DNA of 64,000 nt, taken from NCBI RefSeq assembly GCF_024298765.1, contig NZ_CP101210.1; one strand, written 5' to 3'. Source of the DNA: Escherichia coli (GTDB taxonomy: Bacteria; Pseudomonadota; Gammaproteobacteria; Enterobacterales; Enterobacteriaceae). The first letter of the stretch is position 1. The number at the start of each line of letters is the position of its first letter. The notes beneath the pieces were generated by a model. It saw only the letters and a program-made list of their open reading frames with translations. It did no database searches and was not told where the DNA came from. Shown piece after piece: positions 23,807-64,000 of this stretch. A program made the position numbers and the translations under genes.

Positions 23807-23822
23807 TTTACGGAGTTATCAC

Positions 23823-24278: not shown

Positions 24279-24281
24279 GCA

Positions 24282-27964: not shown

Positions 27965-27965
27965 C

Positions 27966-28502
27966 ATGTTACGCGATAAATTTATTCACTATTTTCAGCA
28001 ATGGCGTGAACGCCAGTTAAGCCGTGGCGAACACTGGCTGACACAACACCTGGCGGGGCGTTCGCCGCGTGAAAAGGGCATGTTACTGGCAGCGGCGGTG
28101 TTTCTGTTTAGCGCCGGATATTACGTCCTCATCTGGCAGCCTTTGAGCGAACGGATTGAGCAACAGGAGACGATGTTGCAACAGATGGTGGCGATGAACG
28201 CGCGACTGAAGAGCGCCGCGCCGGATATTATTGCGGCGCGAAAATCCGCCACAACAACGCCTGCACAGGTATCGCGGGTCATCAGCGATAGTGCTTCTGC
28301 GCACTCAGTGGTTATCAAGCGGATAGCCGAGCGCGGGGAGAATATTCAGGTCTGGATAGATCCGGTGGTGTTTAATGACCTGCTGAACTGGTTAAAAGCA
28401 CTGGATGAAAAGTATGCGCTGCGGGTGACACAAATTGATGTCAGCGCAGGTGAGAAGCCTGGAATGGTGAATGTGCAGCGGCTGGAATTTGGACGGGGAT
28501 AA
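27966..28502 (+). CDS. gspM: Type II secretion system protein M
   Basis: 178 aa with single N-terminal TM (GMLLAAAVFLFSAGYYVLIW); last gene of the cluster. Confidence 0.8.
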   Translation: MLRDKFIHYFQQWRERQLSRGEHWLTQHLAGRSPREKGMLLAAAVFLFSAGYYVLIWQPLSERIEQQETMLQQMVAMNARLKSAAPDIIAARKSATTTPAQVSRVISDSASAHSVVIKRIAERGENIQVWIDPVVFNDLLNWLKALDEKYALRVTQIDVSAGEKPGMVNVQRLEFGRG

Positions 28503-28613
28503 AGTATCAGGAGATTAATATCAATAAAATTACTCTCGTTAACGTGGCGAGAGTAATTCCCCCAGACTTTATAAGCTAATTTTTTTCGTGAAGGTTATTG
28601 TCAGAGCCAAAAG

Positions 28614-28640
28614 CAAAAACCCGCCTTGTGGCGGGTTCTT
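28614..28640 (-). terminator. Rho-independent terminator-like hairpin
   Basis: Minus-strand reading cccgccacaaggcggg stem-loop followed by TTTTTGCTTTTGG; lies just 3' of the tRNA-Phe remnant and downstream of gspM. Confidence 0.5.
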
Positions 28641-28649
28641 AAGAATTAG

Positions 28650-28668
28650 TGGTGCCCGGACTCGGAAT
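28650..28668 (-). other. tRNA-Phe 3'-end remnant (19 nt, island attachment-site repeat)
   Basis: TGGTGCCCGGACTCGGAAT is the reverse complement of the 3' end of E. coli tRNA-Phe (…ATTCCGAGTCCGGGCACCA); sequence diverges immediately after, so no tRNA body is present here. Confidence 0.7.
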
Positions 28669-28915
28669 GAAACTGGTTATATAACCAATTGTTTTGTATC
28701 GACTGTTTTATCCTTGTTCTTTTTGAGGCCACCAATGAGGCCCCCATGTGCAATTCGAATTCTTTTGACGCTATAATCCCTCTTTCTTGTGGTTTGTTGT
28801 AATCATTTTGTCTGGTTCGATATGCTGAATCGCGGAATCGAAGTGACAACAAAATACAGAGATTTATAAAATACCTGGCTACCTGTGTTAGGGAGCGTTA
28901 ACGCACAGATTTTGT

Positions 28916-29242
28916 TTATGGCTGCCAGAAATGATCTGATGGTTTGTCGTCTGGCTCTGCAAGTACCCTGTTGATATCCCGGGAACCATGAACGATACGT
29001 TCGATACGAACTTCAGTATCCAGTACCCTGAACAGCAGAAGGTAACGACCATACGAACAACCTCTGATCCCAGCCCCTAACTCGGGTCTTTCTCTGTAGA
29101 GTACTGGCGATTCGGCTATCAACAGACATTGTTGGTAAAGCTCTTCGGTAAAACTGATTGCACGGACAGGATTATCCTGAGCGATCCAGTCACCTATAGC
29201 TTCAAGATCGTGTTCTGCTAATGGTGAAACAGTCAGTTTCAT
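28916..29242 (-). CDS. parE: ParE/RelE-family type II toxin
   Basis: 108 aa MKLTVSPLAEHDLEAIGDWIAQDNPVRAISF...RIVHGSRD; overlaps upstream antitoxin gene by 4 nt. Confidence 0.75.
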   Translation of the reverse strand: MKLTVSPLAEHDLEAIGDWIAQDNPVRAISFTEELYQQCLLIAESPVLYRERPELGAGIRGCSYGRYLLLFRVLDTEVRIERIVHGSRDINRVLAEPDDKPSDHFWQP

Positions 29243-29502
29243 ATTGGCTGTTCACCTTCTGCCATCTTTTTGTATTTGTGCGTCAGTCGCCCGAATACCT
29301 CTTCAGCACTTTTACTTTCACCGCTGTTGATGCCTGCGGCCACGGCGCTCTGGAGTGATTCAAGCTTTATCTGCTGTTCCCGTTCTTCCAGAGCACGAAG
29401 TCCGGCACGAATGACTTCACTTGTATTGTTGTACCGACCACTTTCTATTTGTTCGCGGATAAACGTTTCAAAGTAAGGACTGAGGGATACACTGGTAGGC
29501 AT
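29239..29502 (-). CDS. parD: ParD-family (RHH) type II antitoxin
   Basis: 87 aa MPTSVSLSPYFETFIREQIESGRYNNTSEVIRAGLRALEEREQ..., ribbon-helix-helix antitoxin pattern. Confidence 0.75.
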   Translation of the reverse strand: MPTSVSLSPYFETFIREQIESGRYNNTSEVIRAGLRALEEREQQIKLESLQSAVAAGINSGESKSAEEVFGRLTHKYKKMAEGEQPI

Positions 29503-29573
29503 GGTTATTTTCTCGCCGATTGATTACTATCAATTAATAATAGTTAATATTCGCGAATTGTAAAATACCTCTT

Positions 29574-30440
29574 TTATGCCTTGCGGCTTTTGTTCACTGT
29601 GCTTGCCAGGGCTTCCGGGTAGTGTCTGGCAATAATATCATTAAGCCTGTCAACCAGCTCTGGTTTCCTGAACGTGATGTGCGCGGAGCCCTTCTTAAAG
29701 TATCTGATGCTGAACATCTCATCTTCATAGTCCTCTTTACCCTGAACAGACTGGATGTGATCATCCAGATGAATGGTGATGTTTTCCCGGTTGTCGGGGA
29801 TCGGTTTGCCGCTGAACAGGTGCAGCATTCTTTCCAGATCGGCAAGTCGATCGGCCTGTTGTCCGGTGATAAGATGAAACCCCCACCGGTCCCACCTCAC
29901 CAGATTGTTGACGATAATTTTACTGCCAAATTTGCAGGGTGAATTGGTTTTGTAATTCCAGCTCAGTCCTCTGAAAACGTTGAGCACCCCTCGCTCAAAC
30001 ACTTCATCTTTGTTCTGGTGCAGTTGTTCAAACGTGCTCAGGATATTTGCTTCGCTGATTTCCGGAAAATTATCGTACTCCAGTGACCGGTACCATGTAT
30101 CACGGGCTTGTGCATCCATTAATGACAGCATCCCTGAACGTTGCATCAGATCACGCCAGATTTCGCGGTCAAGGTTGCGGGTGATGGCTTTCATTGCGGT
30201 TTCCGGTTTTTCCATCAGCCAGCAACCGCAGCGAAAATCCTGTTTCATGGCCCAGTCCAGTGCAGTTTTACCTCCGATGCTTTCCGTCAGCACCGAGATT
30301 TCTGCCAGTTGCCGGATAAGTGTGTCGATTTGCAGCAGCGCACTCTTTCGTACAGCCAGAATGTGGCGGATGCTGGTTGAGCCGATAACGTCCGTATGCC
30401 CGTTGACCACTTCCGGACGGGGGGCTGTGATTTCAGACAT
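29574..30440 (-). CDS. Hypothetical protein (DUF4942-like, CP4-type island cargo)
   Basis: 288-aa ORF with no recognisable catalytic motif; family assignment from recollection of genes adjacent to cbtA/cbeA modules. Confidence 0.45.
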   Translation of the reverse strand: MSEITAPRPEVVNGHTDVIGSTSIRHILAVRKSALLQIDTLIRQLAEISVLTESIGGKTALDWAMKQDFRCGCWLMEKPETAMKAITRNLDREIWRDLMQRSGMLSLMDAQARDTWYRSLEYDNFPEISEANILSTFEQLHQNKDEVFERGVLNVFRGLSWNYKTNSPCKFGSKIIVNNLVRWDRWGFHLITGQQADRLADLERMLHLFSGKPIPDNRENITIHLDDHIQSVQGKEDYEDEMFSIRYFKKGSAHITFRKPELVDRLNDIIARHYPEALASTVNKSRKA

Positions 30441-38508: not shown

Positions 38509-40013
38509 TACCATTTAACTGAAAGCCACCATAACGTCTTTTTGACTACATTTATGATAATGCGTCTCATTTTGTTTTCGTTTTTTTGTTCAGGGAAATT
38601 TTCCGAACATCAGTGATAATGAGGGTTTTGTTGTTTTTGTTTCTGCAATGTTTGAGGACTGTTCCTGGAGACGATTCGTTGCTTGTGAGCAAGAGGTGGT
38701 CCGCTTTACTGGACAAGTTTTGCATTTGTTGAGTGGTGAAATGGAAGTAAAAAGAGCCCCTTTCTGGCAATGGTTGAAAAAGTCAGTAGCGTGTGACAGT
38801 AAAAGCTAACATAAAGTGATTATCGTATGATTATGACAATGACTTATAACTTTTATGAAAAGAACAACAGAAACTACGAAGCCATAGCAGATTCCTGAGA
38901 CCATGTTTTCTGAGGTAGAGAAAATAATTCCAGAGTAAATCTGTTCTGTTTTTAGGACAGAAAACTCCATGCTGGCTGTAAAAGTGAAAAATTAACACCC
39001 AGTATGTATGGAAGTCTGAAGATGTTGAGAATGTCGGTATGATACTATATACACATATTTTACTAAGTATTTTTACTAAGCATTTCAGTAAGTGTTATAC
39101 ACGTATTTTCATAAACACTTCTACAATTGTTTTCGTTAAGCATTGCTATACACATCCAGTTTAGTAAATCTTTACGTTAACTAAATCAGTTTAATGCTGC
39201 TGTAAAACCTTTCTGCTTCAGCAATCAATCTGCTATTCGATTTTACTGATGTTACGTTTAACCTTTCCTGAGATTTCGAGTTTCGACGTTAGCATGAGAA
39301 AAGTATCTTTACGCTAAATCAACCCGAACTTTCCTGAAGTAATCTGACGTTCTTTTCGATGTGCTTACAACGATTCTGTTAAATGACTTTCTGGATGTTT
39401 TGATAACAATCAGATTTAGGCATTAACGATTCCTGACGTTTTTCTTTTCCGTGTAAGGTCATTGTTTTCGTCATGAGGTTTCTTCTTGCATTGCGAAAGT
39501 GTGATGAACGGTTTTGGTGTTTTGATTCAGATGAAGTTTACGTTATCGATGGTTAATCGTTTTTATGGTGCGTAGTGAAACGTAACGCTTTCAGGAAGGG
39601 AAAATCGATTCTGATGGGGATGATCGTGTAACGGCGTTATCTGTAAACAGGTTTTAAACATGTCATTCGCATCCGTGATTGAGTTGTGTGATTAAGCTGT
39701 AGGTTTTGGGGTTGTTGTTGATTTGCATTACCAGGAAGCGTTCTGGTTGCGTTTCTGGTGTTTTGTTTGAATGTTCTGTGGATCCTTTTCCCTTCTGACT
39801 TTTCTCGTTGTCTATGTCGTTTTTAAATCCATTCGCTGTTCTTGAGTGTTTTTACCCTGTGTGTAGAATTATCTTTTCGTTCCGGGATGGTTTGTTCCGT
39901 TTCAATCACTCTTAATCAGAAAGTTGTAGCATTGCTCAATGCCGGATGCCGTAAAGTTTTACCGCGGTGATTAATGATGTGAAGTCAATCCAAATCAACG
40001 GAGATCTCTCATC

Positions 40014-42645: not shown

Positions 42646-44625
42646 ATGAACTTACAAGACAAAGAACAAAGCGCCAAACTCTCCAGTGCTATTTGGCGTA
42701 TGGCAGATGATTTATGGGGTGATTTCAAACACACCGATTTTGCGCGGATTATCCTGCCATTTTTGCTACTGCGTCGTATTGAATGCGTGTTAGAACCCAC
42801 CCGTGAGGAAGTTCGTAAGTTCTATCTGGCCGAAAAACAATCCGGCATAGACCTTGGTTTAGTGTTGCCAGAAATTGCGGGATTCGCCTTTTACAACACC
42901 AGTGAATATAGCCTAGAAACCTTAGGCGCGTCAGACACCGGCGACAACCTAGAACACTACATCAGCCAGTTCAGCAAAAACGTTCGTACCATCTTTGATG
43001 AGTTTAAATTTGGTCAAACCATAGAAGATCTGGAAAAAGCCAAGTTGCTGTATCGCATGGTAAACCATTTTGCCAACCTCGACTTGCATCCTGATGTAGT
43101 GTCTGACCGCGTATTATCAGATGCTTATGAAGAGCTGATTCTAAAGTTCGCCAGTTCGGTTAATGAAAAGGCCGGGGAATTTATGACCCCGCGTGATGCC
43201 GTGCGTCTTGCCACCAAACTGGTGCTGGCGGCGGATGAAGATATCTTTAGTGAAAAGGGTGTGATCCGCACCATCTATGACCCAACCTGTGGCACGGGCG
43301 GTTTCCTTTCCGATGCCATTAGCCAAATTGAAGAAATGGGCAGCAGCGCTAAAGTCGTGCCTTTTGGTCAAGAGCTCGACCCCGCGACCCATGCCATGGC
43401 GCTGACCAATATGATGATCCGCGGTTTTGATGCCAATAACATCAAGCAAGGCAACACCTTATCAGACGATCAGTTACGTGCCGACAAGTTTCACTACGGC
43501 CTTGCCAACCCGCCATTTGGCATTAAGTGGGAAAAAGCCAAGAAAGAAGTAGAACGTGAGCACAAACAGCTCAAATACGCCGGACGCTTTGGGCCAGGCC
43601 TGCCGAGTATTTCTGATGGTTCAATGCTGTTTTTACTGCACTTGGTATCAAAAATGGAAACGCCGGAAAATGGTGGTGGCCGAGTGGGTATAGTCCTTTC
43701 TGGCTCGCCACTGTTTAATGGCGATGCAGGCTCAGGCCCATCAGAAATCCGCCGTTGGCTGCTAGAACAAGACTTAGTCGAAGCGATTGTTGCCCTGCCA
43801 ACCGATATGTTCTTCAACACCGGCATTGGCACCTACATCTGGATTTTGACTAACCATAAAGAGCCAAGACGCAAGAATCAGGTGCAACTGATTAACTTGG
43901 CAGATATTTGGACTCCCATGCGTAAATCGCAAGGCGATAAGCGCAAGTACCTGAGTGATGAACAGATTGACGATATTGTCCGTGCGTACGATGGCTTTGA
44001 AGCCAGTGACAACTGTAAGATCTTCCAGACTACTGATTTTGCCTACCGTAAAGTCACCATTCAGCGTCCACTGCGTGCCAAACTAGATATTACCGCTGCG
44101 GGCATTGCTGCATTTGTGCAGCAAGATACGTTTAAAAAACTCAAACCAGAGCAACAAGCGGCATGGGTACAATACCTCACCGATAACCTTGGCCTTCAGC
44201 CTTATGAATGGGCACGTTTGGCGGTTAAGAAGAATAACAATAAGGGTGACTTTGGTAAGTGCTCAAAAGCACTGGCTACGGCCTTAACTGCGCACTTTGT
44301 AAAAATTGATCCGCAATTTGAGCCTGCACTGGATGAAAAAGGCCAAGTGATCGCCGACCCTAAACTCAAAGACACCGAAAGCATTCCTTTTGACCGCGAC
44401 GTTGAAGATTACTTCGCACAAGAGGTGCTGCCACATGTACCGGATGCCTTTATTGATCACTCAGTGCGTGATGAAAAAGACGGCGAAGTGGGCATTGTCG
44501 GTTATGAAATTAACTTTAACCGCTATTTCTACCAATACGTGCCACCACGCGAGTTGAGTGTGATTGATCGTGAGCTAAAAGCATGTGAAGCGCGCATTCA
44601 GGCTCTGCTGAATGAGGTGGCGTAA
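42646..44625 (+). CDS. hsdM: Type I restriction-modification system, DNA methyltransferase subunit
   Basis: AdoMet motif DPTCGTGGFL and catalytic NPPF (GLANPPFGIKWEK); 659 aa. Confidence 0.9.
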   Translation: MNLQDKEQSAKLSSAIWRMADDLWGDFKHTDFARIILPFLLLRRIECVLEPTREEVRKFYLAEKQSGIDLGLVLPEIAGFAFYNTSEYSLETLGASDTGDNLEHYISQFSKNVRTIFDEFKFGQTIEDLEKAKLLYRMVNHFANLDLHPDVVSDRVLSDAYEELILKFASSVNEKAGEFMTPRDAVRLATKLVLAADEDIFSEKGVIRTIYDPTCGTGGFLSDAISQIEEMGSSAKVVPFGQELDPATHAMALTNMMIRGFDANNIKQGNTLSDDQLRADKFHYGLANPPFGIKWEKAKKEVEREHKQLKYAGRFGPGLPSISDGSMLFLLHLVSKMETPENGGGRVGIVLSGSPLFNGDAGSGPSEIRRWLLEQDLVEAIVALPTDMFFNTGIGTYIWILTNHKEPRRKNQVQLINLADIWTPMRKSQGDKRKYLSDEQIDDIVRAYDGFEASDNCKIFQTTDFAYRKVTIQRPLRAKLDITAAGIAAFVQQDTFKKLKPEQQAAWVQYLTDNLGLQPYEWARLAVKKNNNKGDFGKCSKALATALTAHFVKIDPQFEPALDEKGQVIADPKLKDTESIPFDRDVEDYFAQEVLPHVPDAFIDHSVRDEKDGEVGIVGYEINFNRYFYQYVPPRELSVIDRELKACEARIQALLNEVA

Positions 44626-45911
44626 TGAATGCTGGCAACATAGTAGATGCTTTCGTATCTGACTCGAAATGGAACTCAGTACCAGCTAAACGTTTATTTA
44701 CGAGTAGCAAAGAAATCAATCAAGGAATGAAAGAATCTAATCGTCTTGCACTAACAATGAAAGGTGTCATAAACCGCTCGTTAGACGATTTACAAGGACT
44801 TCAATCTTCTGATTACTCTGTTTATCAGATTTTTGAAAAAGATGACTTAGTTTTTAAGCTCATAGATCTTGAAAATATAAAGACTAGCCGAGTGGGGATT
44901 GTGCATGAACGAGGAATAATGAGCCCTGCATACATCCGTGTTTCAGCGAGTTCAAATAGCATCTACCCAAGGTTCTATTACTGGTACTTTTTTGCTCTAT
45001 ACCTAACCAATATTTATAACAAACTGGGTGGAGGAGTTCGTCAGAACCTAACAGCTGGTGATCTTTTAGAAATACCTGTTCCACTGATTGATATTTCATT
45101 ACAGAAGCAGGTTAGCACATTCCTTGATCGCGAAACCCAGCGCATCGACAGTCTGATCGAGGAAAAGCAGACCTTTATTAAGCTGCTCAAAGAAAAACGC
45201 CAAGCACTGATCAGCCATGTGGTCACAAAGGGGCTCTATCCCAATGTGGAGATGCAGGACTCTGGCATCGAGTGGATTGGGCAAGTGCCGAAGCATTGGG
45301 AAGTCAAAAAGATAAAGCATATTTGCTCCAACTTTATGTATGGAACCTCTCAAGACTGTAACCAGTCTGATGTTGGCTATCCTGTTCTCAGGATACCAAA
45401 CATCAAGAGTACCAATGTTGATTTTGAAGATCTCAAATATGCAAATATCAGTGATGTTGATGCTTTAACTTATCTTTTATCAAGAGGCGACATTTTAGTC
45501 ATCAGAACTAACGGTAACCCTAATCTGGTCGGCCAAAGCGCGCTTTTTGATTCAAATGGGCAGTATTTATTTGCGTCGTACCTAATAAAGTTAACACCAA
45601 AGCAAGGAGTGGATACTAGCTTCTTAGTGGAAGCGATGAACTCACTATCTGTTCGTCAAGCATTAACATTTCAGTCAAGAACATCGGTAGGTAACTACAA
45701 CCTGAGCATTCCTTCACTAGCTAATACAAGTATTGCTATCCCACCAATTGATGAGCAAAAGACAATAACGAATTACTTGAGTGCAGCAACGATAAACATT
45801 GATTTACTGATTCAAGAGACTGATAAATCGATTGATCTTCTAAAAGAACACCGCACATCGCTGATCAACGCGGCTGTCACAGGAAAAATAGACGTCAGGG
45901 AGGCGGTGTAA
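44625..45911 (+). CDS. hsdS: Type I restriction-modification system, specificity subunit
   Basis: 428 aa with two target-recognition domains separated by conserved repeats (LIEEKQTFIKLLKEKRQALISHVVTKGL / LLIQETDKSIDLLKEHRTSLINAAVTGKIDV); start overlaps hsdM stop (TAATG). Confidence 0.85.
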   Translation: MNAGNIVDAFVSDSKWNSVPAKRLFTSSKEINQGMKESNRLALTMKGVINRSLDDLQGLQSSDYSVYQIFEKDDLVFKLIDLENIKTSRVGIVHERGIMSPAYIRVSASSNSIYPRFYYWYFFALYLTNIYNKLGGGVRQNLTAGDLLEIPVPLIDISLQKQVSTFLDRETQRIDSLIEEKQTFIKLLKEKRQALISHVVTKGLYPNVEMQDSGIEWIGQVPKHWEVKKIKHICSNFMYGTSQDCNQSDVGYPVLRIPNIKSTNVDFEDLKYANISDVDALTYLLSRGDILVIRTNGNPNLVGQSALFDSNGQYLFASYLIKLTPKQGVDTSFLVEAMNSLSVRQALTFQSRTSVGNYNLSIPSLANTSIAIPPIDEQKTITNYLSAATINIDLLIQETDKSIDLLKEHRTSLINAAVTGKIDVREAV

Positions 45912-48900
45912 TGGCTGCACATCATGAAGTGCATTTTGAACAATATATTACCGAGCAGTTGGTGAACAATGGCTGGAAAGAAGGCCATTCCTGCCACTAT
46001 GACCAGCAACGCGCCCTTTACCCGCAAGATGTCATGGATTGGGTAAAGGCCACCCAGCCAGATGCCTGGCACAAACTGAATAAACTGCATGGTGTGAATG
46101 CCGAGCAGGTGCTGTTGGAGCGTTTGGAAAAAGCCCTCTCTTCCCACAAAGCTGGCAGTAAAACAGGTGGCACCATTAATGTGCTGCGTAAAGGCTTTAC
46201 CATTGCAGGTTGCGGCACGATTGCCATGGGCCAACGCAAACCCGAAGATGCGCGCAATGAAGAGCGTATAGCCCGTTATGAGCACAACATTTTGCGCGTG
46301 GTGCGCCAACTGAAATATTGCCCGACTCGCGAGTGGGAAATTGACTTGGTGTTCTTTATCAACGGTCTACCCGTTGCCACCGCCGAGCTAAAAACCGATT
46401 TTACCCAGTCGCTAGAATCGGCGATTGCGCAGTACAAAGAGGATCGTCTGCCCGTTGACCCAAAAACCAAGCGTAAAGAGCCGCTGTTAACCTTTAAACG
46501 CGGTGCAGTGGTACATTTTGCCATGTCTGATACAGAAATCGCCATGGCGACCAAACTGGCGGGAGAAAATACCTATTTTCTGCCCTTCAATAAAGGCCAT
46601 GATGGTTCTACCTCTGATTTGCCCGTACACATCAACTTGCCGGGTGAAGATGGAGAGTATCCGGTCAGCTATTTTTGGCAAGAAATTGCCCAAAAAGATA
46701 ATTGGCTACGCATTTTCTACAGCTTTGTGTATGTCGAAACCAAAGAGGTTGCCGATAGCAATGGCAAGGTTGAGCGTAAGGAAACACAGATTTTTCCGCG
46801 TTATCATCAGTTAGCCGCAGTCAACAAGATGATTGATGATGCCCGCCAGAACGGCGCAGGCATGCAGTATCTTTGTGAGCACAGCGCCGGTTCGGGAAAA
46901 ACCTCTACCATAGCCTGGACGGCCCATGATTTGATTCGTTTACGCAGCACCGATGGTAAAGCGGTCTTTAAATCAGTGATCATTGTGACCGACCGCACCG
47001 TGCTGGATTCGCAGTTGCAAGATGCGGTGCAACAGCTGGATCATCAATATGGGGTGATTAAGGCGATTGATCGCGAAAAGAGCAGCGAGTCGAAATCAAA
47101 ACAGCTGACTGAAGCGCTATTGACTGGCACGCCGATCATTGTAGTGACGATTCAAACCTTCCCATATGCGTTAGAAGCGATTCTGACCAATCAATCTTTG
47201 GCACAAAGTAACTTTGCGGTGATCATCGATGAAGCACACACCTCGCAAACAGGCTCTACAGCCAAAGGGTTACGCGCAGCGCTTACTCTAAACCTTAGCC
47301 CTCAAGAGTTGGAGCAAATGAGCATTGAGGACATTCTTACTAAGGTGCAAGAAGCGCGCGCCATGCCCAAGAACGTTTCGCACTTTGCTTTTACGGCAAC
47401 ACCCAAGCACAGCACCAAGATGTTGTTTGGCCGCCCGAAAGACCCTAACCAACCAGTGTCAGATGACAATCTTCCTGAATCGTTCCACCTCTACACCCAA
47501 CGTCAGGCCATTGATGAGGGTTTTATTCTTGATGTGCTGGAGAATTACACCCACTACGATACAGCCTACAAAATTGGTGAGAACAATCTGGATGAGAAGC
47601 GCGTAGACAGCAAACAAGCTCGCCGCGCGTTGGCGCGCTGGATGTCACTGCACCCAACCACGGTCAGCCAAAAAGTCGAATTTATTATTAAGCACTTCAA
47701 GGCCAATATCGCTCACCTACTGGAAGGTGAAGCCAAAGCCATGGTGGTCACATCGGGCAGGCCACAGGCGGTGAAATACAAGCTTGCTTTTGATAAATAC
47801 ATTAAAAAGCATGGTATTGAAGGTATCCAAGCCTTGGTTGCCTTCTCGGGCAAAGTCCCCGGCAAAGATTTGGGTGATGAAGACAGCCAAGACCCGCTAG
47901 AAATTGATTTCGATAAAGAGTACACCGAGTACAACTTAAACCCAGACACGCACGGGGCTGACCTGCGCCATGAGTTTGAGAAAACCGAATATCGCGTCAT
48001 GTTAGTCGCCAACAAGTTCCAAACGGGCTTTAATCAACCAAAACTGGTTGCCATGTATTTGGATAAGAAAATATCCGATGTAGAAGCGGTGCAAACGCTG
48101 TCTCGCCTAAACCGCACCTATCCAGGCAAAGACACAACCTTCGTGATTGATTTTGTTAACGATCCACAAACCATTCTCAATGCGTTCAAAAAGTACGACA
48201 AAGGCGCGCAGCTTAATGAAGTGCAAGATGTGAACGTCATCTATGACATCAAAGATATTTTGGATGAACAGAACATATACAACCATCAAGATTTAGAGTT
48301 GTTTAAGCAAGCGCGTGGTAAATCGATTCTCGGCCAATCACCTGACAAAAAGCCACACGCGCACAAGAAACTGCTAGCTGCCACACAACGCCCTACCGAT
48401 GTGTTCAACGTTAAGCTCAAAGAGCTGGTTGATGCTGCAAACCATTGGGATCAGCAATACAACAAAGCGCACCTTGCGGGTGATGAAAAAGCGGCGAACT
48501 ACGCAGAATCTCAGCGCAGTGATTTCACCAAGCAGCGCGAAGCACTAATGCGTTTTAAGTCAGATTTAGCTCGATTTGTGAAGCACTATAGCTATATGGC
48601 GCAATTGATTGAGTTTGGTGATCCTGAACTGGAAAACTTTGCCGCGTTTGCTCATTTGCTATCACGTCGATTGAAAGGGGTAACACCAGAAAACATCGAT
48701 CTCAGTGCACTGGTACTAGAAAAATTCAAAATCAAATACGACAAAGAGCCGCTTCCAGAAGCGTTTAATCAGGTACTTGAACCTATCCGCCCCAACTATA
48801 ACGACCCTGCGGATCGTGAACAGGCATTTCTTGCCGATATCATTCGCCGCCTAAACGAACTGTTTGGCGATGTCGGCGACGAACCCGGTCGCCGAAACTT

Positions 48901-49147
48901 TGCCAACGGTACTATTACGCGTGTCACCCAAAATCCAATTGTGGTTGAGCAGATAGAAAAGCACGACAAGTCGATTGCCCTCAAAGGCGACTTGCCGCAA
49001 GCGGTGAAGCAAGCCGTTGTGCAGGCTCTGCTGAAAGAAGGTGATATAGCCCGAACGCTACTCAAAGACCCACAAGTTATGGCAAGTTATGTTGAGTTGA
49101 TTTTTGACATGATGAAGCAAGGTGCAGAACAGGCGGCGGTGAAATAA
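45911..49147 (+). CDS. hsdR: Type I restriction-modification system, restriction/helicase subunit
   Basis: 1078 aa; Walker A SAGSGKTST, DEAH box (IIDEAHTSQ); start overlaps hsdS stop (TAATG). Confidence 0.9.
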   Translation: MAAHHEVHFEQYITEQLVNNGWKEGHSCHYDQQRALYPQDVMDWVKATQPDAWHKLNKLHGVNAEQVLLERLEKALSSHKAGSKTGGTINVLRKGFTIAGCGTIAMGQRKPEDARNEERIARYEHNILRVVRQLKYCPTREWEIDLVFFINGLPVATAELKTDFTQSLESAIAQYKEDRLPVDPKTKRKEPLLTFKRGAVVHFAMSDTEIAMATKLAGENTYFLPFNKGHDGSTSDLPVHINLPGEDGEYPVSYFWQEIAQKDNWLRIFYSFVYVETKEVADSNGKVERKETQIFPRYHQLAAVNKMIDDARQNGAGMQYLCEHSAGSGKTSTIAWTAHDLIRLRSTDGKAVFKSVIIVTDRTVLDSQLQDAVQQLDHQYGVIKAIDREKSSESKSKQLTEALLTGTPIIVVTIQTFPYALEAILTNQSLAQSNFAVIIDEAHTSQTGSTAKGLRAALTLNLSPQELEQMSIEDILTKVQEARAMPKNVSHFAFTATPKHSTKMLFGRPKDPNQPVSDDNLPESFHLYTQRQAIDEGFILDVLENYTHYDTAYKIGENNLDEKRVDSKQARRALARWMSLHPTTVSQKVEFIIKHFKANIAHLLEGEAKAMVVTSGRPQAVKYKLAFDKYIKKHGIEGIQALVAFSGKVPGKDLGDEDSQDPLEIDFDKEYTEYNLNPDTHGADLRHEFEKTEYRVMLVANKFQTGFNQPKLVAMYLDKKISDVEAVQTLSRLNRTYPGKDTTFVIDFVNDPQTILNAFKKYDKGAQLNEVQDVNVIYDIKDILDEQNIYNHQDLELFKQARGKSILGQSPDKKPHAHKKLLAATQRPTDVFNVKLKELVDAANHWDQQYNKAHLAGDEKAANYAESQRSDFTKQREALMRFKSDLARFVKHYSYMAQLIEFGDPELENFAAFAHLLSRRLKGVTPENIDLSALVLEKFKIKYDKEPLPEAFNQVLEPIRPNYNDPADREQAFLADIIRRLNELFGDVGDEPGRRNFANGTITRVTQNPIVVEQIEKHDKSIALKGDLPQAVKQAVVQALLKEGDIARTLLKDPQVMASYVELIFDMMKQGAEQAAVK

Positions 49148-54986: not shown

Positions 54987-57729
<2,743 letters not shown>

Positions 57730-58237
57730 CGTAAGTAAAATCAGCCACCCACAGCTGGTCAGGTCGTTCTGCCACGAACTGACGGTTTACGCGGTCGCCT
57801 GCGGCAACGGCTTTCCGGCTGATGGTCGTACGGACCTTTTTACCCCGGAGAACACCGGCAAGTCCCATAACCGCCATGAGACGTGCCACTGTACATCTGG
57901 CCACCCTGATTCCTTCCCGTAACAACTGACGCCAGACTTTACGCACACCGTACACCTGATGATTTTCATCGTATACGCGCTGTATCTCTCTCTTCAGCCA
58001 GTCGTCGTGCTGCGCACGGGCACTGCGTTTATCCGGATGATGTCGCTGTTGCTGACAATGGTAATACGTTGACGGGGCAATATGCAGTTCGCTGCATACC
58101 GGTCCGACCCCGTACTGCTCACGCAGCTTATCCAGCAGTGGCATCATTTTTCCAGAGGCGGTCGAACTCCGCCTTCGCAAAATAAGCGGAAGCCTGGCGA
58201 AGGATATCGTTACTGCGGCGCAGTTCACGATTTTCAC
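57730..58237 (-). CDS. IS3 transposase OrfB, 5' exon (upstream of intron)
   Basis: ...[73 protein letters not shown]...[10 protein letters not shown] then intron. Confidence 0.8.
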
Positions 58238-58469
58238 GTTCCAGCTCTTTCAGACGCTGACGTTCAGCGCTGGTGAGCCCACCATCACCGCCCCCGGTAT
58301 CCCGCTCATGCTGGCGAACCCAGACACGCAGAGTCTCCGGCGTACAGCCAATCTTTGGAGCAATGGAACAAATTGCCGCCCACTGTGAGTCATATTCATC
58401 CTGACTTTCCAGAACCATACGAATCGCCCGCTGACGGACTTCGGGGGAAAAACGAGTATTTTTAGTCAT
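58128..58469 (-). CDS. IS3 transposase OrfA
   Basis: [107 protein letters not shown]. Confidence 0.9.
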
Positions 58470-58922
58470 CCTGTTTACCTCTTTCTCAGGGAGTTTAGTC
58501 TCCAGGATTTCCGGGGCGGTTCAAATACTGGGCGAAGGGAGATGTTATTGCGAAGCGCGCGCCAATTGGTCAGTGGGAACCTTATTCGGAAGAGTCACTA
58601 CTTGGCATCATCGTCACCAGCGTCTGTCGTATTAAAGTCGCGATGCTAAAACCTGAACCTCCCAGAGATCCCCATATCCCGCTGATGGGGGATTTTAACT
58701 AAAACTTAGCGCTATCGCTGCGTATCGTAACTATCCCGTATTACGTAGCGTAAATTATGACGCCATACGGGGAACAAATACACAGAGGAAGAAAAAGATT
58801 AGATTGGTTTTAAGGGATGTTTTTATCATAAATGGCACTGCTAAAATTATGAGATTATCGAAGATAAAATTCTTGATCATACATAAAAGGCCTCCTGAAT
58901 TAAATCAAGAGGCGTATAGTTT

Positions 58923-60041
58923 TTACATTACTGATGTATGTTTAATGATCTCACTGATTTTCACTTTCCTGTCCTGCGATCTTGAAAGAGTGGCAGCATC
59001 AGCAGTAGCAATCGCCGACATGGCCGCCTCACCATTGAGAAGGTCAATATAATCTTCTTCAGGTTTTGCACCACAGAGGATATTATGGAGGAATAACGTC
59101 TCCTTTCTTATTAAACTGGCAAGCCATAATGGTGTTTTTTTTCCTGGATGACCATATGCTATAGCGCCATCCATTTCTGAGGTCATATTGCCTTTCCGAC
59201 GATCATCATCTTCTTCTTGTGTTTCATGGACCAAAAAATGCTTTGTCTGACCGCCAATCCTAAGTGACCCTGCTGTTTCTTGCATATCAATTTTAATAGA
59301 GCCTTTAGTTCCATTGATGATGACATAATGTTCCGGCCAGTTAAATGCACTCCCCCACTCTAAGGTTGCTAGTTTTCCTGACGGGAATTCCAAGGTCATA
59401 AATAACATATCATCTTCATTGCCAAATCCTGGACCAGAATGGGCCAAATTTCCACCAATCATAGTAACCGTCTCTGGTATTTCTCCAAGTAAATGCTGAA
59501 CACAATCTAACTCATGTATATGATGATATAGATGTCCACCAGATTTTTCTTTCATCTTTTTCCAGGAAAGTCTCTCTTGTTTGTTTTCCCAGCCATTTCT
59601 CTTAGTATGACATGATAATATTTCGCCGATAACACCTTCTTTAATTAACTTCCGTGCATATTGAACCCCATTGAAAAAATTCATAATATGCCCGGCCATA
59701 AAGGTCACACCAGCTTCTTTACACGCTTTGACCATATCCACACAATCTTCATAACTTAATGCAATTGGTTTTTCACAAAAAACATGCTTCTTATTCTTTG
59801 CTGCTTTAATTACTGGTTCTTTATGCAGATAATTTGGGGTGGCTACGATCACGCAATCGACTAATTTACTTGAGACTAAAGCATCCAAGCTTGACATATT
59901 GATACACTGCAATTCACGGGCAATATTTTCTCCATTTTCAGGATCGTATACACATGTAATTTTTGCATTATCATGCATATTCATAAAACGAGCTAATTCA
60001 GCGCCAAAGTATCCAACACCAACAACGCCATAATTAATCAT
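58923..60041 (-). CDS. yjhC: Gfo/Idh/MocA-family NAD-dependent oxidoreductase (YjhC/NanY-like)
   Basis: MINYGVVGVGYFGAELARFMNMHDNAKITCVYDPENGENIAR... Rossmann N-terminus; paired with the upstream MFS transporter. Confidence 0.8.
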   Translation of the reverse strand: MINYGVVGVGYFGAELARFMNMHDNAKITCVYDPENGENIARELQCINMSSLDALVSSKLVDCVIVATPNYLHKEPVIKAAKNKKHVFCEKPIALSYEDCVDMVKACKEAGVTFMAGHIMNFFNGVQYARKLIKEGVIGEILSCHTKRNGWENKQERLSWKKMKEKSGGHLYHHIHELDCVQHLLGEIPETVTMIGGNLAHSGPGFGNEDDMLFMTLEFPSGKLATLEWGSAFNWPEHYVIINGTKGSIKIDMQETAGSLRIGGQTKHFLVHETQEEDDDRRKGNMTSEMDGAIAYGHPGKKTPLWLASLIRKETLFLHNILCGAKPEEDYIDLLNGEAAMSAIATADAATLSRSQDRKVKISEIIKHTSVM

Positions 60042-60052
60042 AAAGCCTCCAA

Positions 60053-61270
60053 TTATTTAGCCACGGATAGTTTATAAATTTTACCTGGAATATCAAAACC
60101 AACTAACAAAATTAATAAGGCAGAGAATGCAACCGTAACAATGAATAATGAAACACCTAAGCCATAATATCCTGAAATGTATGTAGCTAATACAGGTGCG
60201 GCCATTCCTCCAGTTGCCCCTAAGTTATAAATAAGACCGGTCCCTAATCCTCTTAATTTTGTTGGAAAGTAATCATATATAAATTTTGGAACCAACCCTG
60301 CAATACCTAAATTTGTAAACATTAATCCAAAGAGACATAATCCTATAAGAGAAGAGTTTTTCACAGAAATAAAAAAAAGAGGACAAAGGAAAACAAATGA
60401 AGTTATTAGACCGACTACAAAGGCTTTTTTTACACCAATCTTATCACCAACAAAACCAAAAAATATTGTACCTGTCAGTGTTCCTAAACCTGCTATTGTC
60501 ATCAGAGTTGAAATAACCACTGTATTAACTCCATTATCTGCCAGGTAGGAAGGAAGTAGTCCGTTTATCGGCCAGTTTGCACCAAATAGACAAAAACAGA
60601 CGAGGAAAACGATCATAGAGATTGAAAGATGTGGTTTTCTGAAGACAGACAAAAAAGTTGATTTATCCTTATATTTATCTTCAATCCACTCCTGACTTTC
60701 TGGAGCACTTTTTCTGATCCAAAGAACTAGTAAAACTGGTAACAGGCCTATAAAAAAAGAGTTTCTCCATCCATATACTTCAGCAAACTGAGGGATTATT
60801 TGTGCCGCAATAATATTTCCAACAGAAAAACCACTTACCAAAAAAGCACTAGCTTTAGATTGAAGATTTTTAGGCCAACTTTCTACCGCATAAGTTGAAG
60901 CACATGCATATTCACCAGACATCCCTAAGCCAACAATAAAACGGCAAACTGCGAGCATATATAAGTTTGTAGCAATACCGCTAAGGCCTGTTCCGACTGA
61001 GTAAATGATAATTGCCCACATCATCATTGGCTTACGACCATATTTATCAGCCATGGCACCAAAAAAACCACCTCCAATAGGTCTGGCTATGAAGGCCACT
61101 GTCCCTATTAAAGTAGCCTGAATATCCGTAATGCCAAGATCTGCTTTTATAATATGAAGAATGTAAAATATCATCATAAAATCAAAGCCATCAAATACAT
61201 ATCCAAGCCATGCGGAAAAAAGAGCTTTCCGTTGTGGTGGATTAACTTGTTTATACCATGCTGTTGCCAT
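60053..61270 (-). CDS. yjhB: MFS transporter (YjhB/NanX-like, sialic-acid-derivative uptake)
   Basis: 405 aa from MATAWYKQVNPPQRKALFSAWLGYVFDGFDFMMI...; 12-TM MFS pattern. Confidence 0.8.
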   Translation of the reverse strand: MATAWYKQVNPPQRKALFSAWLGYVFDGFDFMMIFYILHIIKADLGITDIQATLIGTVAFIARPIGGGFFGAMADKYGRKPMMMWAIIIYSVGTGLSGIATNLYMLAVCRFIVGLGMSGEYACASTYAVESWPKNLQSKASAFLVSGFSVGNIIAAQIIPQFAEVYGWRNSFFIGLLPVLLVLWIRKSAPESQEWIEDKYKDKSTFLSVFRKPHLSISMIVFLVCFCLFGANWPINGLLPSYLADNGVNTVVISTLMTIAGLGTLTGTIFFGFVGDKIGVKKAFVVGLITSFVFLCPLFFISVKNSSLIGLCLFGLMFTNLGIAGLVPKFIYDYFPTKLRGLGTGLIYNLGATGGMAAPVLATYISGYYGLGVSLFIVTVAFSALLILLVGFDIPGKIYKLSVAK

Positions 61271-61680
61271 ATTTGTTTCCTGTGTTATTCTAATATAGCC
61301 CTTAAAGTAAATATTAGGGAGCCTCAACAATATCCAGAAATAATTATATTGTCTTCAAATACGCCAGTACTATTGATGGTTATCAATACCTAATCAGTAC
61401 AATCTTTTCCTCCATTTCTTCTTAACATATTTCACTCTATGAAAGATAAAACTGATACCCACCTACAGTTTTGGGTCACCAACAAAAAACAATGTTCGCC
61501 AGATATTCCACCACTGGCACAGTTCAACCCTGCTTCAAAAATTGACTTATTCATTGTGCTCATTTTCGTAGTCCGTTCAGGTTGAATAAAACTCCCTTAG
61601 TCAAATGAGGAAAGACTGAGAGGTTATTACTTTAGCTTACGTTATAGCTGTTTTCCTTTGCAGTATTTCCTTGCTTTTCT

Positions 61681-61705
61681 GTATACCTTTATACCTGTTA
61701 TACCA
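61681..61705 (-). promoter_or_regulatory. NanR operator (Nan box, three GGTATA repeats)
   Basis: Minus strand reads TGGTATAACAGGTATAAAGGTATAC = GGTATA-N3-GGTATA-N2-GGTATA, upstream of yjhB. Confidence 0.65.
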
Positions 61706-62300
61706 GATCAAAAAACAAGCAATCCACATAACAAAACGCGTTTTGTTACTGATGTCACAAATTGAGCATATTTTTGTAGCTGATAGTTTGTTACAAACAC
61801 CAGAACCAAGATGCCTATTTCGTTTCAGCATCAACTGTTAAATTATCTGGTTGCCAACGAGAATACTGAGCTTTTTTGTCCCCAAGACTGACCGTCAACG
61901 CCACAATCTTTGACTGTTTGACATTGTCATGCCCGCAGGCCAGCGGATCTAAAGACATTAGACTGCTTGCATCAGCCAGTTGCGTATCTGGCTATGTCCC
62001 TTAATTGGTAAGGGTTCGAGGAACTCAACATTAACGCATTTTTCAGCGCATCACCGACAGTGTATATGAACGATTGCACTCTGACGATGGTTGATTTATT
62101 TGGTTGCGTAGGGGCTAGCTAGTCTGGTACCGGAGGCTGGATCTGAAGTACTGACCCCAGGAATAACGCCGGGCTGACTCATATTCTGACCCATTGTCAG
62201 CCCGCGTGTTTACTGCTCTAGCTCATTTCCTGTTGTCAGGCGTTCAATTCCCAACTGCAGGTTATGGCCCGGTGCACAAACACCTGACGGCAGGTATCAC

Positions 62301-62630
62301 TTACCCGAAGAAGGTAAAGCCCTCAAGAGGCAGTAACTCAGCCAACCTCTCCTCCGGCCACTCCGGCAGACGCGTCAGGACGTCCGTCAGCCAAGCATGT
62401 GGCTCCAGACTGCGGTTCCCAGAAGGCTCATTATCTGTGCCGCGCGGTTCCCGGCCATCAGTGAACCAGCGAACAACCAGGCCTTTCGTCCCATAACGAC
62501 CAGACGGATAGCACGCTCGCAGATATTGTTGTGTGTGCCTTGAAATGCACGATCTTTCCGTCGGTGAAAGTCCGCCCCGGCTAACTCTCGCTCCGACTGG
62601 AAGGACAAGAAGCGGTCCAGGAGGTAACAA
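62301..62630 (-). pseudogene. IS66-family transposase C-terminal fragment (frameshifted)
   Basis: Two overlapping frames carry ...NNICERAIRLVVMGRKAWLFAGSLMAGNRAAQIMSLL... and ...HAWLTDVLTRLPEWPEERLAELLP..., matching the conserved C-terminus of IS66 TnpC as I recall it. Confidence 0.5.
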
Positions 62631-63098
62631 AAGGGCTGAATCTCTCCCTGAAACGACTTCTTCAGGAAGTCAACGGGTTATGCGGGCCGTAATGTGAGTG
62701 AACACTGAGCAGCCATCGAAATGCCGTCGAGGGTGCTGACACGCCACAATAACGGGGAAGGCCGACGATGACCGGGAAGAGAGTGAGAAAGGCATCGGTC
62801 ATACCCACCGGGGTTGTGGTGTCAGCATGCATAACAATTGATCGATCGTGCAACAAGAGAAGTCCATAACGATGTCTGTCCGGGTGACGGGCAACAACGC
62901 CTCGCGAGGGGGTGAATCGGTTGTTATGGATGGCAGATGGGGTGTAGTAGTGAAAATACTGAGTAATGTCAGAGGAGCGAAGGCCCCCTCTTGCAGTACC
63001 AGTGTAACATGCAGGAAGAGCCCGGGGATTGCCATCAGCCTCACAACCCCGCTCGAACCGGTTCAGAACCTACAGAAAACACTACAGGAGAAAGCAAA

Positions 63099-64000
63099 GT
63101 GAACCGCCCCGTGTTTCCTGTTTATCATTTTCTGGTCAGTGCCGCGATTCTGGTATTCGTGGTGATTTTCTGGCGGACACACCATCGCGACCACCGTAAC
63201 TGGCTGGCTCTACGGCTATTCGTATTATGCTCTGTAAACCGTTGGCCATTGCGGATGGTTAAAGGAACAGTTGTGGGGACAACTGACACATTACGTGAAA
63301 TGCAGCGTTATGAACAACTGAGTCAGCACGGGGCTGACAACTGGAAAATCCAGCCGGGAGCACCGTTATATGATACGATTGTTATTGTCACTGGTGAGAA
63401 TGTGCGCAGGGATTATATGTCAGTGTATGGCTATCTCGTACCAACCACACCGTGGCTGAATACGGCACCCGGTTTATTTATTGACGATTATACCTTGACA
63501 GCCTCCAGTACAGTGTCTTCCCTGAGCCGGACACTGATTTATGACTATGAGCAGAACCCTGATTCCGGCAACAATGTGGTGGCGCTGGCAGCAAAAGCAG
63601 GATACAGCACATGGTGGATATCCAATCAAGGAAAACTGGGGGAGCATGACACACGCATCTCTGTTATTGCTTCTGATGCGGAGCATGCCACTTTCCTCAA
63701 GAAAGGCAGCTTCGCTTCCCGTAAAACAGATGACAAACTGTTGTTACAGGAAACAGAACGTGCGCTGGCGGATACATCCTCTCCGAAGATAATTTTCCTG
63801 CACATGATGGGTTCTCATCCAAATCCGTGTGACAGCCTTAACTCCTGGCCGAATAATTACCTGGAGCAGTATCCCCGAAAAATTGCCTGTTACCTCGCCA
63901 GCATCAGTAAACTGGATAACTTTCTTGGCCAGCTTGATGGTATCCTTCGCCGGTACTCACATCATTTCGCCATGCTTTACTTTTCTGGCCTTGGGCTGTC
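63099..64000 (+). CDS. Sulfatase/phosphoethanolamine-transferase-family protein (YjgX-like), partial; continues past window end
   Basis: Frame from GTG 63099 open to the window end (MNRPVFPVYHFLVSAAILVFVVIFW...DTIVIVTGENVRRDYMSVYGY...KIIFLHMMGSHPNPCDSLNSWP...); only one N-terminal TM, so probably N-terminally truncated relative to EptA-type enzymes. Absent from ORF track because no stop lies in the window. Confidence 0.5.
   Translation, partial: MNRPVFPVYHFLVSAAILVFVVIFWRTHHRDHRNWLALRLFVLCSVNRWPLRMVKGTVVGTTDTLREMQRYEQLSQHGADNWKIQPGAPLYDTIVIVTGENVRRDYMSVYGYLVPTTPWLNTAPGLFIDDYTLTASSTVSSLSRTLIYDYEQNPDSGNNVVALAAKAGYSTWWISNQGKLGEHDTRISVIASDAEHATFLKKGSFASRKTDDKLLLQETERALADTSSPKIIFLHMMGSHPNPCDSLNSWPNNYLEQYPRKIACYLASISKLDNFLGQLDGILRRYSHHFAMLYFSGLGL

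Follow-up and report, generated by a model that had tools for sequence, protein, structure and literature searches.

The DNA analysed here, a 64,000-nucleotide stretch of the Escherichia coli genome that we call the window, carries towards one end a pair of intact genes read on the minus strand, nanX and nanY, preceded by a regulatory region. A preliminary description had delimited this module as 58923–61705, which is accurate to within one base, and had proposed a yjhB/yjhC-like pair in which an MFS transporter gene is followed by a Gfo/Idh/MocA oxidoreductase gene. The pair is indeed nanX/nanY, in that order; yjhB/yjhC are the older names, and the preliminary description did not mention that the function of the products has since been established. 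The coding features, with those immediately beyond nanY, are as follows.

60053..61270, minus strand: nanX (yjhB), MFS transporter gene, recognized by NCBIfam NF008963 and Pfam MFS_1/Sugar_tr
58923..60041, minus strand: nanY (yjhC), encoding an NAD-dependent 2,7-anhydro-N-acetylneuraminate hydratase of 372 aa, recognized by Pfam and PDB 6O15
58890..58913, minus strand: terminator-like hairpin and T-run right after the nanY stop, with a 9-bp stem including 5 GC pairs, then CTTTTATGTA
58755..58880, minus strand: small ORF ythA, the KpLE2 gene that follows nanY; K-12 ythA matches exactly over its first 30 nt, at 58880

NanX scored 787 bits against the equivalog model NF008963 (cutoff 637), while NanT-type NCBIfam models scored it below their cutoffs, and it is identical to its K-12 counterpart at 403 of 405 residues (differences I88F and V293I). 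The annotated ATG lies at 61270; the longest ORF opens at a TTG at 61330, which is not the annotated start. Beginning 11 nt downstream of nanX, nanY encodes a protein with the N- and C-terminal GFO_IDH_MocA domains (PF01408 and PF02894) that matches PDB 6O15, 'YjhC' (E=8e-259), and departs from K-12 at a single residue (K166 versus Q). The catalytic residues described for RgNanOx are K93 (the lysine of EKP), K163 (the 'fourth' lysine) and H175, H176 and H178 of an HHxH motif (PMC7535918); the corresponding set is present in NanY as EKP at 90–92, K161, and H173, H174 and H176 within HLYHHIH. RefSeq records with identical DNA annotate both genes as nanX and nanY, whose products are known to take up and hydrate 2,7-anhydro-Neu5Ac and Neu5Ac2en (PMC7535918, PMC7315737).

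Upstream of nanX, the preliminary description had noted a perfect three-repeat Nan box about 410 bp from the transporter start. This box was confirmed as an exact match, and the measured distance to the ATG is 411 nt. The region between nanX and the flanking DNA comprises the following elements.

61271..61681, minus strand: leader of 411 nt from operator to nanX ATG, with 3 bases differing from K-12
61432..61563, minus strand: leader ORF of 43 codons (speculative), lined up at its start with an upstream ORF of 12 codons in nanC leaders
61682..61704, minus strand: NanR operator (Nan box) of three GGTATA repeats with 3- and 2-bp spacers, GGTATAACAGGTATAAAGGTATA
61685..61702, minus strand: putative core promoter, with a −10 hexamer TATAAC (61702–61697) in the first Nan repeat and a predicted start at about 61690
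61706..61709: GATC (Dam) site 1 bp upstream of the Nan box, TTGATCTGGTATA
61741..61762, minus strand: CRP-like site TGTGA-N6-TAACA, read from the sequence and aligning with its counterpart in the nanA and nanC promoters

The operator has no mismatches and occurs once in the window, as does its two-repeat core, and none of 100 dinucleotide-preserving shuffles of the window contained a match to GGTATA-N3-GGTATA-N2-GGTATA when up to two mismatches were allowed. The identical 23-mer stands in the K-12 nanX promoter (L008) and in the K-12 nanA promoter. Operators of this (GGTATA)3 type are bound by three NanR dimers and released by Neu5Ac, and the nanA, nanC and nanX operators have been aligned with one another (PMC8012715); a PnanX reporter is Neu5Ac-responsive (bioRxiv 10.1101/2024.10.23.619804). 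Near-identity with K-12 suggests that the operator at 61682–61704 is likewise bound by NanR and freed by Neu5Ac. The promoters of nanA, nanC and nanX can be aligned over the box, the CRP-like site and a T-rich run, which includes GATC in L010 and the E. coli promoters, and it is by this homology that the CRP-like site is likely to be functional. The GATC beside the box is kept in the E. coli nanA, nanC and nanX promoters and in the L010 nanC promoter, and is replaced by TTATTCT in L014 and in the L012 nanA promoter; in K-12, methylation of the GATC sites adjoining the NanR operators of nanA, nanC and yjhB varies over time (PMC5155068). If the centre of the CRP-like site (61751.5) is assumed to lie at −61.5, then transcription would start at about 61690 and TATAAC would occupy −12 to −7, a geometry consistent with an operator that overlaps its promoter. 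A consensus sigma-70 scan did not flag this proposed promoter, which is to be expected of a CRP-dependent promoter with a weak −35. A perfect 20-bp palindrome (61729–61748) extends into the right half of the CRP-like site and matched no nameable regulator.

The closest match is K-12 nanXY (yjhBC, b4279–b4280), which has the same genes, 23-bp operator, GATC, CRP-like site and 411-nt leader and the same neighbours, ythA downstream and yjgZ and the truncated yjgX upstream. Resemblance to the nanCMS operon is more partial. The fimB–nanC intergenic region contains a homologous cassette of about 80 bp (81–84% identity) that spans the CRP-like site, T-run, GATC and first two repeats, but its third repeat is degenerate (GGTGCG/GGTGCA) whereas nanX, like nanA, has three perfect repeats. 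Further downstream, identity between the nanC and nanX leaders is only about 53%. The long leader is nevertheless not peculiar to nanXY, as nanC shares both the promoter cassette and the leader length: the distance from operator to start codon is 416–427 nt in nanC leaders of three lineages, while in nanATEK only 35 nt separate box and ATG. In other enterobacteria, orthologous nanX–nanY genes form part of nanC-nanM-nanX-nanY clusters under a Nan-box promoter (L010/L011, NanX 88%; L012/L013, NanX 76%). There nanXY lack a promoter of their own and follow nanM after about 100–116 nt, the sole box being upstream of nanC; the L012 cluster adjoins nanR–nanA. No E. coli-type box was found with nanXY pairs at 70–74% (L019–L022) or NanC homologues at 63–78% (L023, L025 and L026), and these loci were therefore unusable for testing conservation of the leader. 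When genome contigs were searched with NanX, the sole hit was a locus in Vibrio sinensis (58% identity), which has no Nan box.

The DNA around nanXY is of KpLE2 type from 58524 up to the window end, being 99.3–99.7% identical to K-12 and collinear with it through the truncated yjhD, ythA, yjgZ and the truncated yjgX. These flanks, and the distal border of the island in which they lie, include the following features.

61801..61812: IS4 target site, empty in the window; in K-12 it is occupied by IS4 (insG) and its 12 bp are duplicated
62301..62630, minus strand: yjgZ-type ORF, a transposase-domain remnant mapped from MG1655 yjgZ
63114..64000, plus strand: yjgX-type phosphoethanolamine transferase pseudogene that runs past the window end, mapped from strain CT282 (L018, 3488–4672) and K-12 yjgX
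28650..28668, minus strand: distal border of the island, a 19-nt direct repeat of the tRNA-Phe 3' end with core gsp/glc DNA to its left

The ythA gene is annotated in strains 165, CT282 and Z226-7, and the CT282 counterpart of the yjgZ-type ORF is annotated as a frameshifted transposase-domain protein. In MG1655 the order at the leuX island is leuX-intB'-IS2-yjgX'-yjgZ-IS4-nanX-nanY-ythA, and the record annotates KpLE2 / PR-Y. Thus, both the earlier assignment of the K-12 pair to KpLE2 at another tRNA site and the suggestion that a neighbouring gene is KpLE2-like were borne out. K-12 differs in having IS4 upstream of the operator, IS2 beside intB and a leuX location. The empty IS4 site was recognized from two alignment pieces that overlap at 61801–61812 in comparisons with MG1655 and HB101. 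We considered whether IS4 separates the operator from nanX in K-12 and rejected this, since IS4 entered 97 bp upstream of the box, leaving the K-12 operator joined to nanX.

On the other side of the window, glc/gsp core DNA occupies positions 1–25000, and the tRNA-Phe repeat at 28650 occurs as a single copy in the window (chance expectation 0.01). The genome of CT282 is collinear with the window over gsp, the Phe repeat and nanXY and on past the operon, and its tRNA-Phe gene lies 11.7 kb past nanX; the order in its pheV island is yqgA - tRNA-Phe - int ... tia - int fragment - yjgX' - nanXY, with speC beyond yqgA. CT282 differs from the window in missing a group II intron and in its sequence at 28672–29612, and among complete genomes in the collection there was no end-to-end match to the full window. 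The whole-genome comparison thus indicates that nanXY lies inside a pheV-type island. The earlier attribution to a tRNA-Phe-associated island stands as far as the module is concerned, but the tRNA gene itself falls outside the DNA analysed: ARAGORN found no tRNA gene across the window, and the integrase and tRNA-Phe genes, present in the collinear genomes of CT282, 165 and 779, are here beyond the window end. The same applies to the tia - integrase fragment part that characterizes tia-carrying selC and pheV islands. Relative to KpLE2, only 186 bp from the 3' end of the integrase gene remain, as read past the window end in the collinear genomes, and the far-end attachment repeat derives from tRNA-Phe and not from tRNA-Leu.

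Carriage of nanXY was detected in about 1132 complete genomes (about 21% of complete E. coli genomes), and in about 1036 of these (about 92%; nanX-to-leuX query covered) the operon is at leuX. The relocated, tia-joined arrangement at pheV or selC occurs in only about 21 genomes. The same DNA is found at leuX in K-12 and Z226-7, at pheV in 165, CT282 and 779, and at selC in FY10 and CM2, which supports the modular exchange between islands that had been suggested. In all five relocated genomes examined, a phosphoethanolamine transferase - tia - integrase fragment array precedes nanXY. The tia gene was first described on a selC island of ETEC H10407.

Alternative explanations concern either the control of the operon or its location. 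One is that the GGTATA repeats are a relic and that the operon is silent, or is driven independently of NanR from a nearer promoter or neighbouring mobile elements. The 411-nt distance is unusually large for an operator acting at a promoter and there is insertion sequence and intron debris around the locus, but we regard this explanation as very improbable because operator, promoter cassette and leader together share 99.4% identity with K-12, in which experiments have established control by NanR. The absence of the K-12 IS4 makes this copy, if anything, the more pristine; a consensus sigma-70 scan of the minus strand between box and nanX gave no better candidate and no promoter-like hexamer pair, and neither ORF is disrupted. 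It is also unlikely, though less so, that the leader adds a second layer of control to NanR, as the preliminary description had supposed it might. This would act on translation or transcript stability through an element derived from the nanC leader, either a short upstream ORF or a block that binds protein or RNA. Maintenance of leader length between nanX and nanC is in keeping with this idea, and the middle of the nanX leader shows weak homology to the leader of nanC (97 nt at 64% identity; E=1e-5 within a small set of upstream sequences). The best conserved block, GGAAAGGA.TAT..AAATGA, resembles a Shine–Dalgarno sequence and start codon; a 12-codon ORF begins there, identically placed in E. 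coli nanC, L024 and L010, and the nanX leader aligns at this point. However, the nanC ORF stops after its 12 codons, while the nanX version has a weaker Shine–Dalgarno sequence (CGGA) and has lost the stop codon, so as to run into 43 unrelated codons; the peptide sequences are poorly conserved and short ORFs are frequent at 37% GC. In L014, which among relatives outside E. coli is the nearest to have a box of its own (NanX 92%), a segment of about 145 nt is absent and the leader is 249 nt long. No Rfam match was obtained between 58500 and 62500 at E<=1, and at the gathering threshold the matches in the entire window (C0719, the ALIL pseudoknot and two group II intron pieces) all lie outside the leader. 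Folding of a 441-nt leader sequence gave a minimum free energy no more stable than that of shuffles (z-score +0.73), no terminator-like sites were found in the leader, and MG1655 carries no small-protein annotation at the leader ORF. In K-12, moreover, deletion of nanR alone permits growth on the NanX/NanY substrates according to the literature. A narrower version, in which the nanX leader is a diverged nanC promoter-leader cassette and both keep a functional Shine–Dalgarno sequence and start codon with a 12-codon ORF about 130–140 nt past the operator, seems to us more doubtful still. If true, this ORF would be a post-transcriptional step shared by nanCMS and nanXY and missing from the core nanATEK operon.

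A further alternative is that the module truly lies at leuX, as in K-12, and not in a tRNA-Phe island. Positions 31670–64000 are collinear with the larger leuX island of Z226-7 at 99.0% identity and no tRNA gene is present within the window, but the contiguous window itself holds the pheV-flanking glc–gsp core and the tRNA-Phe 3' repeat, there is no tRNA-Leu remnant in it, and CT282 is collinear on either side and runs on to tRNA-Phe, yqgA and speC. Placement at leuX is contradicted by the window itself and could be revived only by a chimeric misassembly, which leaves it scarcely credible. We also considered a chromosomal inversion between pheV and leuX as the origin of the arrangement and rejected it, since both borders of the CT282 island are of pheV type.

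We therefore hold with high confidence that this locus is an intact, NanR-repressed nanXY operon on a KpLE2-type segment within a composite island at pheV; no observation spoke against this. On this reading, nanXY ranks third among the operons of the NanR sialoregulon. NanX imports 2,7-anhydro-Neu5Ac and 2-deoxy-2,3-didehydro-Neu5Ac released by the sialidases of other bacteria, and NanY converts them to Neu5Ac by an NAD-dependent oxidation-hydration cycle. The Neu5Ac then feeds into the core nanATEK pathway; nanR and nanATEK lie elsewhere in the genome, outside the window, and their presence is assumed, these genes being found in >99% of isolates (PMC10088187). Transcription would proceed from a CRP-type promoter whose −10 element and start site lie inside or just beside the (GGTATA)3 operator, where NanR dimers are expected to block RNA polymerase until freed by Neu5Ac, as the K-12 literature describes and as near-identity implies here. 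The untranslated leader of about 410–420 nt would stem from a promoter-plus-leader cassette common to nanC. As to location, the KpLE2-type segment, whose usual home is leuX, appears to have been joined to the tia / phosphoethanolamine-transferase module via a break inside its integrase gene, and the resulting composite would sit in the island at tRNA-Phe (pheV).

The nanXY genes, their substrates, structure, operator and repressor mechanism have all been published, and the copy described here is almost identical to that of K-12. It is an ordinary nanXY copy except for its location in a tRNA-Phe island instead of the usual tRNA-Leu site. Our analysis sets this copy in context: nanXY proves to be an accessory trait, found mostly at leuX and rarely at pheV or selC. 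Its stand-alone promoter has an operator and cassette in common with nanA and nanC and a long leader format in common with nanC, while in other enterobacteria nanXY forms the tail of a nanC-nanM-nanX-nanY operon. In a small relocated group, mostly poultry and human isolates, the segment is fused behind the tia module, and the relocation of nanXY provides a clean, datable case of island-to-island reshuffling.

The preliminary description had placed a perfect three-repeat Nan box about 410 bp upstream of an MFS transporter start, followed by a Gfo/Idh/MocA oxidoreductase, and both the operator and the gene order were borne out. The 23-mer GGTATAACAGGTATAAAGGTATA is present on the minus strand, with a gap of 411 nt between box and ATG, and two minus-strand ORFs lie 3' of it:

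61682-61704, minus strand: Nan box
60053-61270, minus strand: nanX, MFS ORF (annotated ATG at 61270; longest ORF from a TTG at 61330)
58923-60041, minus strand: nanY, Gfo/Idh/MocA ORF, second 3' of the box
58913-58890: terminator-like hairpin after the nanY stop codon

A pattern search permitting up to two mismatches returned this 23-mer as the single match in 64 kb (0 of 100 shuffles matched), and its two-repeat core also occurs only once in the window.

Domain and family searches identified both products. NanX carries Pfam MFS_1 and scores 787 bits on the NCBIfam equivalog NF008963 (cutoff 637), while falling below the cutoffs of the NanT-type models. NanY has both Gfo/Idh/MocA Pfam domains, matches PDB 6O15 ('oxidoreductase YjhC') at E=8e-259 and retains EKP (90-92), K161 and H173/H174/H176, whose counterparts are essential in the Ruminococcus gnavus homologue (PMC7535918). 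Differences from K-12 MG1655 amount to two residues in NanX (I88F and V293I), one in NanY (K166 versus Q) and three bases in the 542-nt stretch between the IS4 site and the nanX ATG. RefSeq annotates identical DNA as nanX and nanY ('2,7-anhydro-N-acetylneuraminate hydratase'). This is a known, well-characterised operon, near-identical to the K-12 copy, and the preliminary description was essentially right in both observation and interpretation.

The operon, renamed from yjhBC to nanXY (PMC7535918), serves the use of 2,7-anhydro-Neu5Ac and 2-deoxy-2,3-didehydro-Neu5Ac, whose uptake needs YjhB/NanX and which YjhC/NanY converts to Neu5Ac (PMC7315737, PMC7535918). K-12 grew on these compounds only with nanR deleted, and wild-type cells grown in LB lacked YjhC activity (PMC7315737); direct growth of BW25113 on 2,7-anhydro-Neu5Ac has been reported (PMC7535918). 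The (GGTATA)3 operator is found at three operons and is bound cooperatively by three NanR dimers, binding being weakened by Neu5Ac (PMC8012715). Of the NanR-controlled promoters tested, PnanX in a chromosomal reporter performed best as a Neu5Ac sensor (bioRxiv 10.1101/2024.10.23.619804). In K-12, methylation of the GATC beside each of these three operators varies with growth phase (PMC5155068); the window has this GATC too (61706-61709).

Alignment of the regions upstream of nanX (window), nanC and nanA (the latter two each from E. coli and one relative) revealed one common cassette, consisting of a CRP-like site (TGTGA-N6-T(A/C/G)(A/G)CA), a T-rich run, which in E. coli and the enterobacterial relative L010 closes with GATCT, and the box. 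If the CRP-like centre, 61751.5, stands at -61.5, a -10 hexamer TATAAC would fall within the first repeat and nanX transcription would start near 61690, a placement that agrees with the published statement that the operator is located within the promoter. Between the CRP-like site and the box is a perfect 20-bp palindrome, TAACAAAACG/CGTTTTGTTA (61729-61748), which extends into the right half of the CRP-like site; imperfect versions (CAAA...TTTG) occur in the promoters of nanC and of L014, a relative with a stand-alone nanXY.

Among relatives, L010 and L011 (NanX 88%) and L012 and L013 (76%) have the order nanC-nanM-nanX-nanY with a Nan box before nanC only, and in L012 this cluster adjoins nanR-nanA. 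L014 (92%), unlike these, has a stand-alone nanXY pair with a box and an adjacent integrase fragment, and the more distant nanXY pairs examined were without such a box. nanXY therefore comes under NanR either as part of a nanC operon or through a private copy of the common cassette, and E. coli nanXY has such a private copy.

Long leaders are not confined to nanX: box and ATG lie 417-418 nt apart at E. coli nanC, 416 nt in the L024 lineage, 427-428 nt in L010 and 330 nt in L012, and 35 nt apart at nanA. In their middle parts the nanX and nanC leaders show weak similarity (64% across 97 nt, including a 34-nt block of ~79%). For the nanX leader, an Rfam search matched zero families, folding was no better than for shuffled sequence (z=+0.73) and no terminator-like site was found. 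In three nanC leaders, from three lineages (L017, L024 and L010), a Shine-Dalgarno-plus-ATG block at a shared position begins a 12-codon ORF, each with a good Shine-Dalgarno sequence: MRSTDILFYDSG, MRSTDTLFYDSG and MKFLCKAFFSSG. The homologous start in the nanX leader, at 61563, has a weaker Shine-Dalgarno and, with the stop codon lost, runs for 43 codons:

61432-61563, minus strand: nanX leader ORF, start homologous to that of the nanC leader ORF, unannotated in MG1655

L014, the nearest of the relatives whose nanXY has a box to itself, is missing the leader ORF segment and has a 249-nt leader. This block is the sole lead for extra leader control, and additional regulation in the nanX leader is possible but unsupported.

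Genome comparison places nanXY inside the tRNA-Phe island, as had been proposed. ARAGORN found no tRNA genes in the window, but core DNA (glc-sslE-gsp, 1-25000), a repeat of the tRNA-Phe end and a collinear strain, CT282, together assign the module to the pheV island:

28650-28668: 19-nt repeat of the tRNA-Phe 3' end, present once in the window

No tRNA-Leu remnant was found in the window. CT282 is collinear with 22845-28671, 29613-55468 and 57730-64000, and continues past the window end through yjgX', an integrase fragment, tia, a phosphoethanolamine transferase, an AAA protein, an integrase and tRNA-Phe to yqgA and speC, which would put nanXY ~12 kb from the tRNA. The first ~0.9 kb within the island border (28672-29612) is unlike CT282, which has an EAL-domain gene there; the island's distal end therefore varies among otherwise collinear strains.

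The segment missing from CT282, 55469-57729, is a 2.26-kb group II intron within an IS3-family element ~1.2 kb downstream of nanY. Its absence from CT282, against its presence in Z226-7 and FY10, suggests a recent and possibly active insertion. This and other elements are as follows:

55550-57073, minus strand: ltrA ORF, intact reverse transcriptase/maturase in the intron
55460-55546: Rfam Intron_gpII match
62558-62697, plus strand: group II intron D1-D4 fragment (Rfam RF02003, 67 bits)
42646-44625, plus strand: hsdM
44625-45911, plus strand: hsdS
45911-49147, plus strand: hsdR
9551-9772, minus strand: sRNA C0719 (Rfam RF00117, 294 bits), core glc/gsp region

The D1-D4 fragment is separate from the 2.26-kb intron, lying ~850 bp upstream of the box in DNA common to K-12 KpLE2, where it overlaps the yjgZ/transposase-remnant region. 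The type I restriction-modification system is complete (42646-49147); a RelB/DinJ-type antitoxin gene comes before it, and after it come two hypothetical genes and rhuM. A 1.5-kb stretch of ~35% GC (~38510-40010), flanked by genes for a 376-aa hypothetical protein and an inovirus Gp2-family protein, contains zero ORFs of at least 90 aa and is likewise without annotation in CT282 and Z226-7. C0719 has no relation to nanXY.

The flanking DNA is KpLE2-like, as first suspected: 58524-64000 (yjhD', ythA, nanY, nanX, yjgZ and yjgX') is 99.3-99.7% identical to K-12 KpLE2, which differs in an extra IS4 at the position equivalent to 61801-61812, 97 bp upstream of the box. Moreover, 31670-64000 aligns collinearly, at 99.0% identity, with the island that Z226-7 carries at leuX, where an intact integrase adjoins tRNA-Leu. 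The ~32 kb shared with Z226-7 also holds CbtA/CbeA, RadC, an antirestriction gene, a GTPase, the type I system, RhuM and MobI besides nanXY. By this comparison, the change of tRNA site involves nearly the whole island, beyond the nanXY pair alone.

A survey of 5426 complete E. coli genomes found 1132 that cover at least 80% of the nanXY region, and 1036 that matched a 6.3-kb query from nanX to leuX-ahr at the same threshold, as against about 21 with phosphoethanolamine transferase - tia - integrase fragment - yjgX' - nanX (at least 93%). These counts make the leuX site with a whole integrase the common and probably the original state; the window arrangement is a rare derivative. Relocated genomes that we inspected carried the pair at pheV (165, CT282 and 779) or selC (FY10 and CM2). 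In the latter two, both poultry isolates, a tia - integrase fragment - yjgX' - nanXY - ythA - IS3 - type I restriction-modification module sits at tRNA-Sec. In this derivative a KpLE2-type segment has become joined to a tia module through a break inside its integrase gene; the composite's presence at two other tRNA sites, pheV and selC, supports the proposed modular exchange between islands. Relocation of nanXY calls for no new mechanism and represents ordinary island mosaicism.
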